A stretch of 24,000 nucleotides of DNA, from contig JBBRDW010000033.1 in assembly GCA_038203525.1 (NCBI GenBank), positions 1 to 24,000 on the forward strand. Direction: 5' to 3'. Every line of letters begins with the position of its first letter. Position 1 is the first letter of the stretch. This document shows positions 989 through 23,270 of this stretch, in pieces. The translations under genes were made by a program, and so were the position numbers. The DNA is from Chitinophagales bacterium (lineage in GTDB: Bacteria; Bacteroidota; Bacteroidia; Chitinophagales; Chitinophagaceae). The notes beneath the pieces are model-generated. The model worked only from the letters and a program-made list of their open reading frames with translations. It was not told the DNA's origin and did no database searches.

Positions 989-1088
989 TTGAATAGTAGT
1001 ATTAAACCCCTTCAGGGTTGATAGTGTACTGTAGTTATTGTGCTGCGGGTTTTACCCGCAGTTATTCATGTTAAAGCCCTTCGGGCTT
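989..1088 (+). repeat. Multi-hairpin repeat unit, copy 1 (RAYT-flanking family)
   Basis: This 100-nt unit contains hairpins AACCCC..GGGTT, CTGCGGGT-TTT-ACCCGCAG (preceded by GTAG) and AAAGCCC-TTC-GGGCTT. It repeats at 1129-1228 with 5 mismatches, exactly 140 bp later. Confidence 0.9.
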
Positions 1089-1128
1089 TTTATTGCACAC
1101 TCATTTTAAGCCTGAAGGGCCATAATGA

Positions 1129-1228
1129 TTGAATAGTAGTATTCAACCCTTTCAGGGTTGGTAGTGTACTGTAGTTATTGATCTGCGGGTTTTACCCGCA
1201 GTTATTCATGTTAAAGCCCTTCGGGCTT
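1129..1228 (+). repeat. Multi-hairpin repeat unit, copy 2
   Basis: 95/100 identical to 989-1088, in tandem with a 140-bp period. Confidence 0.9.
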
Positions 1229-1307
1229 GGTTGATAGCTGTACTATAATCTTGTACACGACCAATATTATTGCCATCGGGCCGCACATTAGAAGCTGTAT
1301 TGCTTGT

Positions 1308-1390
1308 AAGCCCGAAGGGCTTGAATGTGAATAACCATCGGCGAAACCGATGGTATAAAACATGAACACATAACCCCAAAGGGGTTAAAT
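1308..1390 (-). repeat. Multi-hairpin repeat unit, inverted and diverged copy
   Basis: The reverse complement reads AACCCCTTTGGGGTT ... ACCATCGG-TTTCG-CCGATGGT-TATTCACATTCAAGCCCTTCGGGCTT. The order of three hairpins and the TTATTCA..AAGCCCTTCGGGCTT tail match the unit. The middle stem sequence is replaced by a different but still complementary one. Confidence 0.7.
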
Positions 1391-1497
1391 ATGATATAAT
1401 GATTGTATTACGAATTGCTTTAAAAAGAAACCCGTTTATTATTAACTTTCGGAGGGTAAAATAAAATATTAAATTGCCTGTTAAATACAATTTTGAT

Positions 1498-1944
1498 ATG
1501 AGTACTTACCGCCAGATCTTTTACCAGATTGTTTTTGGCACAAAACACCGTAAGCCAACAATTGCAGAAGCATATGAGGAAGAACTATACAAATACATAT
1601 CGGGAATAATAAAAAATAAAAATTGTAAGCTTTATCGTATCAACGGTGTTGAAGATCATATTCATATCATGTCAGACCTTCATCCATCTATTTGTCTTAG
1701 TGATTATGTAAAAGAAATTAAGGTTGCCAGCAGTTTATGGATGAAAGAAGGAAATAAGTTCCCGGAATTCGAAGGATGGCAGGATGGATATGGTGCATTT
1801 ACTTATTCAATAAGAGAAAGGGACATGATAATAAACTATATAAAAAATCAAAAGGAACATCACAGATCAGAAAATTTTTATACCGAATACAGGCGTTTAC
1901 TTATTGAAAATGGAGTTGAATTCGATGAAAAATATTTATTGTAA
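1498..1944 (+). CDS. IS200-like Y1 (HUH) tyrosine transposase of the REP-associated (RAYT / COG1943) type
   Basis: MSTYRQIFYQIVFGTKHRKP...VEDHIHIM (HUH-type HxH motif)...GWQDGYGAFTYS (catalytic Tyr region)...YIKNQKEHH. The ORF track starts at a TTG (1474). The ATG at 1498 fits the usual MSTY.QI.Y.IVF N-terminus. Confidence 0.85.
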   Translation: MSTYRQIFYQIVFGTKHRKPTIAEAYEEELYKYISGIIKNKNCKLYRINGVEDHIHIMSDLHPSICLSDYVKEIKVASSLWMKEGNKFPEFEGWQDGYGAFTYSIRERDMIINYIKNQKEHHRSENFYTEYRRLLIENGVEFDEKYLL

Positions 1945-1950
1945 CAGTTT

Positions 1951-2043
1951 TATTCAACCCCTGTCGGGAGTGGGTGTCTGAAATATATTTATAGCTCCGG
2001 GTAATTAACTGGAGCTATTGATATTAAAGCCCCTTGGGCTTTT
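1951..2043 (+). repeat. Multi-hairpin repeat unit, diverged copy downstream of the transposase
   Basis: Reads TATTCAACCCCTGTCGGG ... AGCTCC-gggtaattaac-tGGAGCT-ATTGATATTAAAGCCCCTTGGGCTTT. The layout matches the unit, again with a different self-complementary middle stem. Confidence 0.6.
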
Positions 2044-3039: not shown

Positions 3040-3136
3040 AAGAAAACCTTCACCAGCAGACCCGTCATTGTGTGTTATCACCAACGACTTTCGCTTTAAT
3101 CTTCGCTGCGATTAAAGCTCCATAAATAATCAGAAC

Positions 3137-3155
3137 GTACAAGAGTGCGACGCAA
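3137..3155 (+). repeat. 19-bp core repeat GTACAAGAGTGCGACGCAA (exact)
   Basis: Exact 19/19 match, intergenic. It is followed 25 nt later by CCGGGCTAAAAAATATTA (3181-3198). Confidence 0.95.
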
Positions 3156-3453
3156 GAAAAGCTGCACAGCATATCTGCTGCCGGGCTAAAAAATATTACA
3201 CATAATATCTGCTTCCTGTTGCTAAAATACCGCTCCCCTTTAACGATGTGGATTTGCAGCTACATTCAGCAGTTGGTTTTTTGTGCAGAACTTAGATTGG
3301 TGCGGCGCAATTTTATAGCAGCCCTGATAAATGCGGCGCCAAACTCCCGGCTTTACCCAAACACAGGATATATAAAAAATCTTTTGCCAATTTGATTTGA
3401 ATTCGCATGCAACGGCATGAAGATTGCGCTTGTCTGTATAAAGAAAGCAGTTT

Positions 3454-4110: not shown

Positions 4111-4290
4111 TTGTACCGTTACCCTTTATTATTTTTATAGAAAACCCGCAATTTGCCTGTTAATATTTTTGTATCAGTCTCCACTACTACTATCAGGTTC
4201 TCGTTGCAGCTTGCCCCGCGCATGGCGCATATGCGGCAAGCTAAGGAATACATTTATTGACCCAACAGCATCGCTACTATTGAGTTTCCG

Positions 4291-4309
4291 TTGCGTCGCA
4301 CTCTTGTAC
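4291..4309 (-). repeat. 19-bp core repeat (exact, reverse orientation TTGCGTCGCACTCTTGTAC)
   Basis: Exact 19/19 match, intergenic, downstream of the hemolysin-III gene. Confidence 0.95.
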
Positions 4310-4503
4310 TTTTGGTTCTCTATGCGACTTTCAGAACTCAGTTGTTTTTTTTCCTTGCAAATGAAAGCGAAGATTATTCGGCAACGCATTAATATTTAAA
4401 ACTATTTACTAAATCTTCATTGCAAGACAACCTAAAACCATTACTGGTAAACACTTTCAGCGATTTTTGTCAAAAATTAGGTTGACGCATAAGCGCCCAT
4501 GGC

Positions 4504-4522
4504 GGTGGTCGCACGCTTGTAC
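4504..4522 (-). repeat. 19-bp core repeat, degenerate copy (14/19)
   Basis: GGTGGTCGCACGCTTGTAC. A weakly complementary partner GCGCAAGAGTTAGCTATGCGGCCAC lies at 4564-4588. Confidence 0.5.
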
Positions 4523-4704
4523 TGTAGTAGATATTTGCGCAATGGTGCATTATTAAGCAATGAGCGCAAGAGTTAGCTATGCGGCCACGGCCTATTATGT
4601 TTTCGATTTAAAGAATGATATAGTTAGATGGCAAATGCGCTGGACAAAAGCAATGCTCTTATTTACTTTTTGTCTTGACACAAAAAAAGGAACAAAAAAG
4701 TCAA

Positions 4705-6179: not shown

Positions 6180-7310
6180 ATGCAACCACTTCCGCTTACT
6201 GTAAAAAGATCTATAGAATTAATGGGCCTGGTATTGGCTGCAGCGATTGTAGTGCAAGGCCAGCAAATCATCATGCCCCTGCTCATGGCTTTTTTTATGA
6301 GCATTGTATTGCTACCCATTTACCGCTTTCTTAAAAAGCATAAAATGCCCGAATTGTTATCCATTTTTCTTTCACTGATGGTCATGATCATTATCATAAG
6401 CCTCATCATTTTTTTTATCAGTTCGCAGATAACGCCGCTTATAAAAGATTTTCCACAGATAAGGGAAAATATTACACGGCATATTAATGATTTAAGCGCA
6501 TGGTTTGGCGAAAGAACCAATATCTCTACAGTAGAACAATCCAAATTTTTAAACGACCAAAGTAATAATTTACTCAATTATGCGGCTAATATTTTAGGCG
6601 GTGCGGCGGGCACATTGGGTACTGCCTTTATCTTTTTTGGCCTGCTGCCAGTGTACACTTTTTTAATGTTGTACTACAAGGTAATCTTAATGCGGTTTGT
6701 GTATATGTGGTTTCCGCAGGAGAGCCATCCACGTGTAAAAGTAGTGGTACAGCAAACGGAAACTATTGTTAAAAGTTATATACTCGGCCTGCTGATACAG
6801 ATCACTTATATCACTATCTTACTGGGAGGTTCGCTCGCACTTTTTGGCATAAAGCACGCCCTGCTCATAGGTATTGTGTTTGGGGTGCTTAACCTTATAC
6901 CCTATATAGGCGCTTTGTTCGGTAATATTATCGGGGTGTTGTTAACCCTCAGTTCATCGCAGGATATTGGGCCGGTGATAACCGTGCTGGTAACCATAGC
7001 CGTGGTTCAGTTCCTCGATAATAATATTTTAATGCCCAGCATCGTGGGCTCTAAAGTAAGGATCAATGCACTGGTTTGTCTTGCCGGTGTCTTTATTGGT
7101 GGTGCACTGGCCGGTATACCCGGCATGTTTCTTTCGCTGCCGCTTATTGCCGTGTTTAAAGTTATATTCGATCATACAGACCGGTTTAAACATTGGGGTA
7201 TTCTTTTTGGTGACGAAATGGAGGCTAAAAAGCCAAACTTAAAAATTTTGAACTGGAAAAAGAATGCCGGACAAAACAGCGTAAAAAAGAAAAAGGAAGA
7301 ACAAGGTTGA
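6180..7310 (+). CDS. AI-2E family transporter (PerM/YhhT-like permease)
   Basis: Polytopic membrane protein of 376 aa. The C-terminal region LNLIPYIGALFGN...FLDNNILMPSIVGSKVRINAL...GIPGMFLSLPLIAV is typical of the family. Confidence 0.85.
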   Translation: MQPLPLTVKRSIELMGLVLAAAIVVQGQQIIMPLLMAFFMSIVLLPIYRFLKKHKMPELLSIFLSLMVMIIIISLIIFFISSQITPLIKDFPQIRENITRHINDLSAWFGERTNISTVEQSKFLNDQSNNLLNYAANILGGAAGTLGTAFIFFGLLPVYTFLMLYYKVILMRFVYMWFPQESHPRVKVVVQQTETIVKSYILGLLIQITYITILLGGSLALFGIKHALLIGIVFGVLNLIPYIGALFGNIIGVLLTLSSSQDIGPVITVLVTIAVVQFLDNNILMPSIVGSKVRINALVCLAGVFIGGALAGIPGMFLSLPLIAVFKVIFDHTDRFKHWGILFGDEMEAKKPNLKILNWKKNAGQNSVKKKKEEQG

Positions 7311-7343
7311 TGTATCCAGCTTTCGAACTTTCTTCAGCTTTGG

Positions 7344-7479
7344 TTGTGTCACTCACTTGTACGTTCAGCACTTTATTCAGCAATTAGCGGTCAGGTATCA
7401 GCAATAACAGCAAGCCGTGTTTCCAAACGCTGACTGATGAAAGCTGAAAGTTATTCTTAAGTACAAGAGTGCGACGCAA
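7344..7479. repeat. Composite A: inverted pair of core repeats (variant arm 7344-7362, exact arm 7461-7479) around a 98-nt self-complementary spacer
   Basis: TTGTGTCACTCACTTGTAC ... GTACAAGAGTGCGACGCAA. The spacer contains complementary blocks (TTCAGC/GCTGAA, CGGTCAG/CTGACTG). Confidence 0.9.
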
Positions 7480-7737
7480 CGATGTTGAATAAAGAACCCA
7501 CGCCTGGCCACAAAAGAAAAAATAAAAGTTAGCCGGGCAGCAAATGCCCGTGCTATAAAAAAATATTAAAACAGATAAACAGGTAGGTTAAACTGCTGGT
7601 TTAAACCATTGATTAAGTTACCTCCAAAATTACTATCCCACGCCTGACTTTGCCACCAATTAAGGCTAATGATTTGATAATTAACGAAAGCAGTTTTTTT
7701 TCGTTTCGCCCACTACAATAAGCATATTGAAGAAAAA

Positions 7738-9316: not shown

Positions 9317-9342
9317 AATCAGCAGCCGGCTAAAATAAAAAA

Positions 9343-9366
9343 GGTCGGTTCATTGCTGAACCAACC
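9343..9366 (-). terminator. Intrinsic terminator of the TonB-dependent receptor gene
   Basis: Hairpin GGTCGGTTCA-TTGC-TGAACCAACC with one G-U pair on the minus-strand transcript. On the minus strand it is followed by TTTTTTATTTT. It lies 29 nt after the stop. Confidence 0.65.
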
Positions 9367-9394
9367 TTTTTAATAGAGGGGAAATATTGATAAC

Positions 9395-12196: not shown

Positions 12197-12455
12197 AACT
12201 TGTTATTAGTTTGGTTCAGAAGCTAAAATATCGAATTTATTGATAAGTCATTTTTTTGTTAAGGGAACAGCCGAAACTACAATCTGAAGTAACCCCATTT
12301 TAATTTGGTTAGTTCGTTATTTTCCAGGTCAGCATTTCTGCTTGGTAGCTATCCATTATTTTACTGATTGTATTGCGATTGCTCTGGCAGCTGCAGTTTT
12401 AGACCAATAAAATACAAGGTTATTAACCCAGCTTTGGTAGTACAATTAAACATTA

Positions 12456-12474
12456 TTGCGTCGCACTCTTGTAC
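12456..12474 (-). repeat. 19-bp core repeat (exact, reverse orientation)
   Basis: Exact 19/19 match in the divergent intergenic region between the TonB receptor and the Rieske gene. It overlaps only the implausible upstream extension of ORF 12469..13695. Confidence 0.95.
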
Positions 12475-12612
12475 AGTTTTTCCACTATTCCGCATGTGCC
12501 AGAGGTAAAACTAATTAACCGGCTTTTATATATTCCGGATGTGGCATTGTATAATAAAGTAGCTACCAGTGCTCCCTTCAAAATAATTAACTTCGGCAAA
12601 ATTGTTTTCCAC

Positions 12613-14928: not shown

Positions 14929-15090
14929 AATAATTTTACAGGAAACTGTTAAGTGTTTATGCTGCCACAGACTTTGGGTACAATTTATTTGTAATTTATT
15001 TGGTTCAAAAACAAGCTCTTGAACGGAAAGTTTTTTATTGGTAAGGTGAAATTTTTTTGGCCCGGCTACAAATCTTTGTTTAATCTTTTG

Positions 15091-15225
15091 TTGCGTCGCA
15101 CACTTGTACTTTTGGTAATAATGGCGGCAAATTCTGTGCAGTACGTAGCCTGCCGCCGTTTGCTATTTTAAAAGGCTGCTGCACATTGCCCAAAAAAGAA
15201 CAAGGCGTACAAGTGAGTGACACAA
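15091..15225. repeat. Composite C: inverted pair of core repeats (18/19 arm 15091-15109, variant arm 15207-15225) around a 97-nt self-complementary spacer
   Basis: TTGCGTCGCACACTTGTAC ... GTACAAGTGAGTGACACAA. The right arm is the exact reverse complement of the variant arm at 7344-7362. The spacer contains GGCGGCA/TGCCGCC, TGTGCAG/CTGCACA and TTTTGG/CCCAAAA pairs. Confidence 0.9.
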
Positions 15226-15339
15226 CAGGTGCCTAATAGCAGCAATGCAGCCCGGTATAAAATATTTACTGTAGAAATTAAAATCCCGTTCTGAATTTTC
15301 GGAAGAGATTTTTTTCTCTCATGCGCAAATTTCTTTAAG

Positions 15340-17016: not shown

Positions 17017-17209
17017 TTGTCGCCAGGTGCAAAGTAATTTTTTAGCTCAGCTGTATAACATCAAAGATGCTTATACTGTAGCTTGCCCGCCGATTCGGCA
17101 GCCGCAAGCTCATAAGTTCAGCACTTAACTAAACAGTAAGGAACGAACATGGAATAATTACCTGCTGATCATCCAGGGCCTCTTTGCCTTGCTGCCTTTA
17201 GTTAACAAA

Positions 17210-17228
17210 GTACAAGCGTGCGACGCAA
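17210..17228 (+). repeat. 19-bp core repeat (18/19: GTACAAGCGTGCGACGCAA)
   Basis: One mismatch. It is followed by AAGCCCGATAAGAATTACCTAAGCCCGGCTAATAAAAATTATTTA (17230-17275). A possible decayed partner ATGCTTATACTGTAG lies at 17067-17081. Confidence 0.9.
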
Positions 17229-17335
17229 CGAAGCCCGATAAGAATTACCTAAGCCCGGCTAATAAAAATTATTTATTAAGTTACCTTGCTATCATTTATC
17301 TTCAAACTGTGAACTAAATACTGTAAAGGAAAACT

Positions 17336-18996: not shown

Positions 18997-19043
18997 TAAA
19001 TACATTTTATGAACCGGGCAATAGAACATGAATGAGGCTTTAC

Positions 19044-19062
19044 TTGCGTCGCACTCTTGTAC
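19044..19062 (-). repeat. 19-bp core repeat (exact, reverse orientation)
   Basis: Exact 19/19 match. The upstream flank 18997-19043 is the reverse-complement homolog of the flank following the 20899 copy (AAGCCTCATTCAT..GCCCGG..AAAAT). Confidence 0.95.
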
Positions 19063-19139
19063 TTTCTCAATAAAATTCAGCCATGACGTACCAGTGAAAC
19101 AAATCGAAAATCTAAGATCTAAAAATCGCAAATCAAATC

Positions 19140-20822: not shown

Positions 20823-20898
20823 ACGCTAAAGTATCAATTTACAAACATAACACGAGTTGTTTTACCCGCTGCGATAAAAGCCCAATATTCCGCTGAAC

Positions 20899-20917
20899 GT
20901 ACAAGAGTGCGACGCAA
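20899..20917 (+). repeat. 19-bp core repeat (exact)
   Basis: Exact 19/19 match in the divergent region between crp-like and dinB. It is followed by CGGAAGCCTCATTCATATTCCCAAGCCCGGCACAAAATATC (20918-20958). Confidence 0.95.
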
Positions 20918-20979
20918 CGGAAGCCTCATTCATATTCCCAAGCCCGGCACAAAATATCTTTTCTAACTTAGCTGCATCA

Positions 20980-22155: not shown

Positions 22156-22254
22156 AAAATGAAGAGCTTAAATGCAACAAAGCAATAAACTGAAAACTAA
22201 CAACTGTAAACGCTAAGCATAAAAAATTAGTCCACTTATTTTGTAGGAAACTAA

Positions 22255-22262
22255 TATATTTG
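22255..22262 (+). promoter_or_regulatory. Candidate Bacteroidota -7 promoter box TATATTTG upstream of the peroxiredoxin gene
   Basis: Matches TAnnTTTG, 19 nt before ATG 22282. No well-spaced -33 TTTG is seen. Confidence 0.3.
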
Positions 22263-22944: not shown

Positions 22945-22977
22945 AACCCCGGTGAAATTAGGCATCGGGGTTTTTTT
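22945..22977 (+). terminator. Intrinsic terminator after the peroxiredoxin gene
   Basis: CCCCG (22947-22951) pairs with CGGGG (22966-22970), followed by T7. The loop is long (14 nt), so confidence is moderate. Confidence 0.5.
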
Positions 22978-23012
22978 ATGGGCCGGGCAGCCGTACCCTG
23001 TGGCAACGTTCC

Positions 23013-23166
23013 TTGCGTCGCACTCTTGTACTTTGGGGAAGTATAGCAGCAAGTTCACGTGTTCAACAGTTCACGAGTTAACTACGCCGTTTACATTTAA
23101 AAGCCCGTAAACCTTTGAACTTGTGAACTGCTTCAACTTATTCTTAAGTACAAGAGTGCGACGCAA
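23013..23166. repeat. Composite B: inverted pair of exact core repeats (23013-23031 and 23148-23166) around a 116-nt self-complementary spacer
   Basis: TTGCGTCGCACTCTTGTAC ... GTACAAGAGTGCGACGCAA, both 19/19. The spacer pairs AGTTCACGTGTTCAACAGTT with AACCTTTGAACTTGTGAACT, and GTTTAC with GTAAAC. Confidence 0.95.
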
Positions 23167-23270
23167 CCAGGCCGCCATAAAAAGATTGGCTGGGATACTA
23201 AAAAATTGTCTTTTATGGTAGTTTATCGTTTTATTAGATATTCGGGTTTACATGTTACTAAGCTTTTAGA

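Follow-up and report, generated by a model that had tools for sequence, protein, structure and literature searches.

A three-box interspersed repeat of intergenic regions in Chitinophagaceae genomes

The segment at positions 20,899-20,958 of the window (by which we mean the whole 24,000-nt stretch of DNA analysed) spans the stretch from core to tail in a single copy of an interspersed, non-palindromic repeat of ~85 nt, which is composed of three short boxes and occurs in ~2,000 copies between ordinary genes of its own genome. This intergenic repeat of the Chitinophagaceae is previously undescribed; our literature searches found no paper containing the exact core or its reverse complement, and none pairing Chitinophagaceae with intergenic repeats. 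We read the unit, at a probability of roughly one half, as an oriented, double-stranded protein-recognition module belonging to a REP/BIME-like family of repeats that is not palindromic.

Hairpins or inverted ends define the abundant intergenic repeats known so far from bacteria (REP, REPIN, BIME, MITEs); the three-box family has neither. Its 19-nt core has been kept in more than 70 genera while the sequence between the boxes drifts, which calls for a highly specific recogniser, and the strict rule that the A-tract is turned toward the nearest gene calls for a mechanism of placement or of function. A partner, if found, would represent either a new way to spread DNA repeats or a new gene-boundary factor in Bacteroidota, and the repeat itself would serve as a ready typing marker for Chitinophagaceae.

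Architecture of the repeat unit

The core, GTACAAGAGTGCGACGCAA (19 nt), is present at 10 places in the window when up to three mismatches are allowed, as against none in 100 shuffled sequences, and in 1,794 copies, 988 of them exact, in the window's own genome (4.77 Mb, 39.7% G+C), of which the repeat makes up roughly 3%. The anatomy of the unit was defined from 1,708 genomic core copies, aligned without gaps at no more than two mismatches, whose logo carries information between about -22 and +72, counted from the start of the core. Boxes follow in the order head (WGCT[G/C]AATAA), 20-nt core and tail (GCCNGGCYCAWAAAA), with spacings constant to +/-1 nt in ~2,000 copies; the earlier note had recognized the part of this unit that comprises core, fixed linker, GC box and A-run. 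It had staked that proposal on a positional enrichment of the GC box and A-run, and the enrichment found among the 1,708 aligned copies is extreme, 92% of them having a tail box that begins 40-41 nt after the start of the core and 98.7% one that begins after 39-42 nt. Conversely, 1,555 of the 2,129 genome-wide matches to the tail-box position weight matrix (PWM) lie 36-48 nt from a core, and the reversed-genome control yielded 170 matches.

The proposed layout of a ~25-nt linker followed by a GCCCGG box holds, and is refined here to a linker of 22-23 nt and a box GCCNGGC(Y)C. With PWM anchoring the tail box reads W-G-C-C-N-G-G-C-Y-C-A-W-A-A-A-A, with G at 97-99% at three positions and A at 96% at two. 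Although GCCNGGC is itself a palindrome the box is asymmetric, its Gs being conserved at 97-99% while its Cs are replaced by T in 17-32% of copies. There was no signal of CCNGG avoidance or of a link to restriction sites. The head box lies at -20 to -11 (~20 nt upstream of the core, with a consensus G at -19) and its position is near constant, with offsets of -25 to -23 in 90% of copies.

The linker is constant in length and largely free in sequence: linkers are distinct in 1,699 of the 1,708 copies and random pairs are 38% identical, the semi-conserved positions being A at +21/22, G at +24 and T at +26. Linker subfamilies exist, and between copies with similar linkers the resemblance exceeds background only over the segment that runs from the core to ~+58, and is at background in the head region and past the A-run. 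A half-element of ~60 nt, as originally suggested, is therefore what these copies share, and the head box is a motif conserved separately from that core-to-A-run homology.

Copies in the window

All strings and coordinates quoted in the earlier note were found in the window. In the flagged copy (plus strand), the segment 20,899-20,958 reads GTACAAGAGTGCGACGCAA-C, 23 nt, then GCCCGGC-ACAAAATATC. Its head box, AAGCCCAATATT, was placed at 20,878-20,889 from the sequence and the family consensus; the core, GTACAAGAGTGCGACGCAA plus C, at 20,899-20,918, includes a 9-nt palindrome, TGCGACGCA; the 23-nt linker occupies 20,919-20,941; and the tail box, GCCCGGC-ACAAAATAT at 20,942-20,957, closes the unit on its outer side, 23 nt ahead of the ATG (20,980) of a Pol IV gene. 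The linker shares AAGCCTCATTCAT with the minus-strand copy whose core is at 19,044, and the linker homology that had been noticed between these two copies through AAGCCTCATTCAT[G/A]TTC is real.

Full units on the plus strand lie at 3,112-3,195 (a solo copy with its tail toward the start of a HlyIII-family gene), 7,436-7,519 (right arm of a pair), 17,185-17,268 (kept in the sister species G001 and G002) and 23,123-23,206 (right arm of a pair, tail toward an M16 peptidase gene). On the minus strand they lie at 4,251-4,334 (tail toward the end of the HlyIII-family gene, within a 320-nt subfamily repeat at 4,204-4,523), 12,416-12,499 (tail toward the start of a TonB-dependent receptor gene, the position being kept in G001 and G002), 15,051-15,134 (left arm of a pair that is kept in G003), 19,004-19,087 (tail adjoining the end of a SIS-domain gene; kept in G001, G002 and G003) and 22,973-23,056, where the A-run, read as the T-run 22,973-22,979, is the U-tract of a terminator hairpin at 22,945-22,972. 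Units with a variant core, GTACAAGTGAGTGACACAA, form the left arm of a head-to-head pair at 7,304-7,387 (minus strand) and the right arm of another at 15,182-15,265 (plus strand).

Two local claims required revision. The copy with its core at 7,461 had been described as carrying two tandem boxes at atypical distances; the second (7,531-7,570) is indeed extra, and the first, GCCTGGCC at 7,502-7,509, stands at the standard 22 nt after the core. The extra tail-like box has its own A-run behind the regular tail of this copy and holds a hairpin, GGGCAGCAAATGCCC. The box at 9,324-9,342 (plus strand), taken at first as solitary, is instead an orphan tail box left by a full element: it lies beside a bidirectional terminator hairpin (9,343-9,373), and in G001 and G002 the corresponding position holds the intact element with a plus-strand core.

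Folding and structural predictions

No stem-loop was found in the unit on either strand. Mean minimum free energies of 300 copies (-17.9 forward and -18.7 reverse) equal those of shuffled sequences (-17.1 and -19.3), and the flagged copy gave folding z values of 0.16 and 0.32 on its two strands. The best local pairing, a 4-bp stem with a wobble pair and a probability of 0.38, is broken by the variant core. Analysis of mutual information detected neighbouring-column effects and no long-range covariation, and the Rfam 15 covariance models gave no match at E <= 1 anywhere in the window. A structured RNA or DNA was rejected on these three grounds. Curvature through helical phasing of A-tracts was likewise rejected, the strongest period being ~18 with no peak at 10-11 nt.

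Placement relative to genes and transcription signals

The repeat is almost strictly intergenic, with only 65 of the 1,708 copies overlapping an ORF call by more than 30 nt. Of co-directional gaps 39% hold copies, as against 45% of divergent and 56% of convergent ones; 55-60% of the gaps in this genome are without any copy. Their orientation is not tied to transcription, which argues for action at the level of DNA rather than RNA.

It is instead tied to the nearest gene, which the A-run end faces, often abutting the stop codon. Measured from +60 on the tail side, the median distance is 24 nt to a gene end or 79 nt to a gene start; from -22 on the head side it is 154 nt to a gene end or 206 nt to a gene start (gene positions are our own ORF calls, so that distances to gene starts are approximate). 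Stop codons peak 15-18 nt past the first G of the tail box, directly behind the A-run, and genes almost never enter that run. The A-run, which had been proposed as the A/T-rich outer end, is therefore a hard outer boundary. Neighbouring copies along contigs alternate in sense (734 minus-plus and 693 plus-minus successions versus 420 in the same sense), and the intervals from a plus to the following minus copy have a median of 2.6 kb.

External hairpins borrow this boundary in a minority of cases. A strong hairpin abuts the T-run in 75 of 918 gene-end copies (~8-13%), so that the A-run doubles there as the U-tract of a terminator; most gene-end copies have no such hairpin. An intrinsic terminator inside the unit was rejected, since the unit has no hairpin of its own. 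A Bacteroidetes sigma-A promoter inside the unit was also rejected, because no TTG (-33)/TAnnTTTG (-7) pair stands at a fixed place. Exact TAnnTTTG boxes of start-facing copies are spread from +80 to +170, outside the unit and in no fixed phase, and an exact -7 box falls within the unit in only 3-6% of copies, on the reverse strand. In the dinB-ahpC gap a conserved promoter box, TATATTTG, lies ~30 nt beyond the A-run position.

Head-to-head pairs and solo copies

Where a gap holds two copies, these are arranged head to head, minus then plus, in 357 of 371 cases and tail to tail in the other 14. The head-to-head pairing implied by the earlier proposal of a 230-290-bp palindromic module is thereby confirmed; there is no such fixed module, because the arms are unrelated and their cores lie anywhere from 30 to 300 nt apart. 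Linker identity between the two arms is 0.381, as against 0.380 for random copies, and heads and flanks are likewise no closer than random. Target-site duplications, a search for which had been proposed just outside the A/T-rich ends, were not found, the lengths of flanking repeats in 242 pairs equalling those of a shuffled-partner control. A palindromic composite as the unit was rejected on arm identity, variable spacing and the lack of duplications.

Solo copies make up ~60%. Above control levels, ~100 of 1,234 solos retain a decayed inverted core and ~90 an inverted tail box; since such remnants accompany only ~7-10%, the idea that most solos are decayed pairs was rejected.

Distribution, matching loci and subfamilies

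An exact-match scan of species genomes retrieved Chitinophagaceae/Chitinophagales records only, among them Segetibacter, Ferruginibacter, Foetidibacter, Flavisolibacter, Limnovirga, Lacibacter, Pinibacter, Puia and other genera. With at most one mismatch the 19-mer occurs in 95 of 201 Chitinophagaceae genomes and in 71 of 135 genera (the reversed-pattern control gave 0), which implies a conserved recogniser. Counts in this 201-genome scan range from 1 to ~1,570 per genome, while copy number within the genus of the window varies two-fold, from 1,037 to 2,206. Copies in low-copy genomes keep all three boxes. In G004, which does not contain the 19-mer, 300 kb were searched for an equivalent repeat with another core and none was found. 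On contig C1 of G121 (another genus), 18 of 19 exact copies among the matches listed are on the plus strand, over ~3 Mb; totals for that genome at no more than one mismatch are 28 forward and 23 reverse, and the exact form may be a strand-linked core subtype.

A positional counterpart exists in another species of the genus for 8 of the 12 window copies. Compared without gaps, copies at matching positions in G000 to G003 and G005 are 91% identical over the core, 60% over the tail box and 54% over the linker, against 30-42% for the flanks; to judge from these comparisons, the boxes are under selection or homogenisation. Gain or loss at single loci is also apparent. Intact cores are present in sister species at the gaps at ~13,740 and ~17,080; at the latter the minus-strand partner is found in G001 and G002, and the window has no intact core there. 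In the gap after dinB, G001, G002 and G005 (the last from another genus) carry a unit, and the window holds only a tail-like remnant at 22,212-22,226. This remnant, GCTAAGCATAAAAAA, without head and core, is followed by the -7-type box TATATTTG at 22,255-22,262, around which a promoter region of ~55 nt is largely conserved in six genomes.

Several subfamilies were distinguished. The variant core GTACAAGTGAGTGACACAA accounts for 213 copies with the same box layout and a weaker tail box, and it pairs only with canonical arms (86 canonical-variant pairs versus 0 variant-variant, where ~5 were expected). A paired substitution in it, C11/G15 to T/A, preserves the symmetry of the small palindrome. 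The variant-core arm of the window at 7,344 has in G002 (L166, ~2761) a counterpart with a canonical-type core, GTACAAGTGTGCGACGCAA, so that one locus has switched core type. In at least 111 copies a long core carries a GC-rich insert of 22-23 nt, GTGCGAC[CACCGCC-nnn-GGCGGGGCAAGCT]GCAAC, with the downstream part unchanged; the insert can form a 5-bp stem that is no more stable than shuffled sequences. In the window this insert, between GCGAC and GCAA, is seen at 4,504-4,522 and 4,213-4,250 (minus strand), and its 3' part, GGGGCAAGCTG, resembles a hairpin repeat, GGGGCAACCTG, that lies at C17:51773 beside the second Y1 transposase gene of the genome.

A further subfamily consists of ~47 copies of a 320-nt repeat with 87-95% identity, one of which is 4,204-4,523 of the window (minus strand). 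That copy has a partial long-core start (GTACAAGCGTGCGACCACCGCC...), a full canonical half-element (core at 4,291) and, at its end, a GC hairpin followed by GCAAGCTGCAAC. This 320-nt repeat appears to be the branch of the family that was amplified last.

Search for a partner protein

No binding protein was identified, and in the low-copy genomes examined no gene was found that recurs beside the repeat. The few long repeats recovered had none with these ends that could be an autonomous element; 304 intervals from a minus to a plus copy contained no recurrent transposase; and no presence/absence polymorphism with clean edges was found.

The genome has two Y1_Tnp genes of its own (window 1,474-1,944 and C17:51824-52279), and both are flanked by GTAG-type hairpin repeats rather than by the core. 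Each of the corresponding RAYT-like regions (window 989-2,043 and C17:51600-52600) is set among its own low-copy GTAG hairpin repeats, e.g. TTGCCCCAGCGGGGCAACCTGTTTAG, whose architecture is unrelated to that of the three-box family. Y1_Tnp is present in 160 of the 201 family genomes, and its presence does not track repeat copy number. The reverse strand of the core (TTGCGTCGCAC) contains CGTC, and many linkers contain ATAGTAG, with no adjoining hairpin. A RAYT link was not supported, the Y1 genes being associated with other repeats and uncoupled from copy number.

Discussion

Fixed spacing, free linkers, the lack of a fold, an orientation independent of transcription, conservation of the boxes and the family-wide 19-mer together point to a conserved and highly specific trans-acting recogniser of double-stranded DNA. 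Patchy presence, thousand-fold differences in copy number, subfamilies and locus-wise gain and loss resemble REP/BIME repeats and not an indispensable host signal. In the mechanism we propose, the unit would most likely act as double-stranded DNA and form an oriented composite site for one conserved trans-acting protein or complex, whose contacts with the three boxes would extend over some eight turns of the helix, the intervening DNA being free to drift. The family would be non-autonomous, having presumably spread by duplication in some lineages, after which copies would be inherited vertically and retained or lost locus by locus. The A-tract end would be set against genes, where in a minority of copies an ordinary terminator would use it as its U-tract. 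A benefit to the host is conjectural, and the present data would accommodate a purely host-beneficial and a commensal role alike. One property counts against the double-stranded reading: the asymmetry of the tail box, with its nearly invariant Gs and C-to-T exchanges, would also fit a single-stranded form.

Of the explanations that compete with such a recognition module, a host boundary element is the one we regard simply as unlikely. A dedicated factor would act directionally toward the tail-side gene and delimit transcription units, either by blocking read-through past the stop codon (a roadblock combined with the U-tract) or by shielding or boosting a promoter on the A-tract side. The tail is always toward the nearest gene, stop codons abut the A-run, neighbouring copies alternate, matching loci keep the boxes, 8-13% of gene-end copies lend their T-run to a genuine terminator hairpin, and a conserved promoter box follows the A-run by ~30 nt in the dinB-ahpC gap, all of which such an element would explain. 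It would not explain why a search of family genomes failed to detect the 19-mer in about half of them, complete ones included, with no equivalent in 300 kb of G004; why copy number differs a thousand-fold between genera and over half of the gaps of this genome are empty; or why species of one genus gain or lose a copy in the same gap without visible gene change. Most gene-end copies, moreover, have no hairpin before the T-run, and -7 boxes keep no fixed distance from the A-run. A bolder form of this idea, which we consider distinctly unlikely, is that the copies could be oriented sites of a dedicated Chitinophagaceae DNA-binding factor marking gene or operon edges, a bacterial 'insulator' whose convergent sites would bracket blocks of ~2.6 kb and act directionally on transcription or DNA topology. 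At the level of RNA, the unit could be a small RNA or a structured element of a UTR, or could itself serve as terminator or promoter; this would be in keeping with a tail box that conserves G and tolerates C/T, and with positions beside gene ends and starts. Both orientations relative to transcription are common, however, and the unit has no fold, covariation or Rfam family; with a hairpin ahead of the T-run and a fixed TTG/TAnnTTTG pair missing as well, we hold an RNA-level element to be extremely improbable.

Two further explanations concern mobility. The repeat could be a REP relative moved through single-stranded DNA by a Y1 transposase of the IS200/RAYT type, with insertion in one orientation beside a T/A-run, which would make the A-run a target and not part of the element. 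This would account for the lack of target duplications and for the strict polarity beside the A-run, also directly behind terminator U-tracts; dominant head-to-head dimers, as reported for REPs (PMC3733652), CGTC on the reverse strand of the core, ATAGTAG in many linkers, the GC hairpin within the core of at least 111 copies and the Y1_Tnp genes of most family genomes agree with it. Yet the canonical unit has no hairpin, and the long core has one of just 5 bp, whose stability does not exceed that of shuffled sequences. GTAG hairpin repeats, not the core, surround both Y1 genes here, and G095 and G115 (38 and 55 copies) gave no Y1_Tnp match while many repeat-free genomes have one; we judge a Y1-driven origin improbable. 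Were the repeat a classical MITE, its half-elements would act as terminal inverted repeats, head-to-head pairs would be what moves, and solos would be decayed halves. The preponderance of head-to-head gaps, the solos that retain a decayed inverted partner, and the ~17,080 partner and ~9,280 element that are intact in sister species, the window having no intact core at either place, speak for this. What counts against it is that the arms of a pair are no more similar than random copies and are variably spaced, that the 242 pairs have no target duplication and ~90% of solos no detectable partner, that the searches turned up no autonomous element or transposase family that has these ends or lies between minus and plus copies, and that conservation peaks ~40-60 nt inside the presumed termini; we hold a MITE to be very improbable.

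Comparison with known repeat families

Neither inverted ends with a defined homologous unit, nor a target-site duplication, nor an autonomous relative, by which MITEs are recognized, was found for the three-box repeat. Pneumococcal BOX, Neisseria Correia and enterobacterial ERIC elements are modular and intergenic and sometimes supply parts of terminators or promoters. They have defined ends, inverted terminal repeats or extensive self-complementarity, and full-length homology, and Correia elements have target duplications. The three-box repeat resembles them in being modular and intergenic and in sometimes supplying terminator or promoter parts to its neighbours, and differs in that its copies share boxes only, with no duplication and no predicted fold.

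REP sequences are imperfect palindromes that form a stem-loop with a GTAG tag, and a REP family flanks its RAYT gene; the three-box unit, by contrast, is linear, ~85 nt long and without a fold, and it does not flank the Y1 genes of its own genome. REPs with a CGTC tag are reported from Bacteroidetes, among other phyla, without a dedicated transposase (Di Nocera et al. 2013, PMC3733652). As with those repeats, the three-box family has no linked transposase and its head-to-head dimers dominate; the letters CGTC occur on the reverse strand of its core, with no hairpin beside them. CGTC REPs have stems of 8-9 bp and loops of 4-5 nt by the tag, whereas the three-box unit offers a 4-bp stem at best, and the REP surveys cover hairpin-type families only (PMC3733652).

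A close likeness is to the REPs and BIMEs of Enterobacteria and the REPINs of Pseudomonas, which are likewise short, very abundant and strictly intergenic. High copy number, extragenic position and head-to-head dimers, the features by which REPs and REPINs are known, are all found here (1,794 copies, 65 of 1,708 overlapping ORFs, and 357 head-to-head versus 14 tail-to-tail gaps). As in REP, BIME and REPIN families, the head-to-head arrangement is strongly preferred and the head-to-tail one almost absent, and subtypes form heterodimers, here of variant and canonical arms (86 versus 0). The three-box repeat also shares with these families a long vertical persistence, a sharply conserved master sequence and a patchy occurrence among related taxa.
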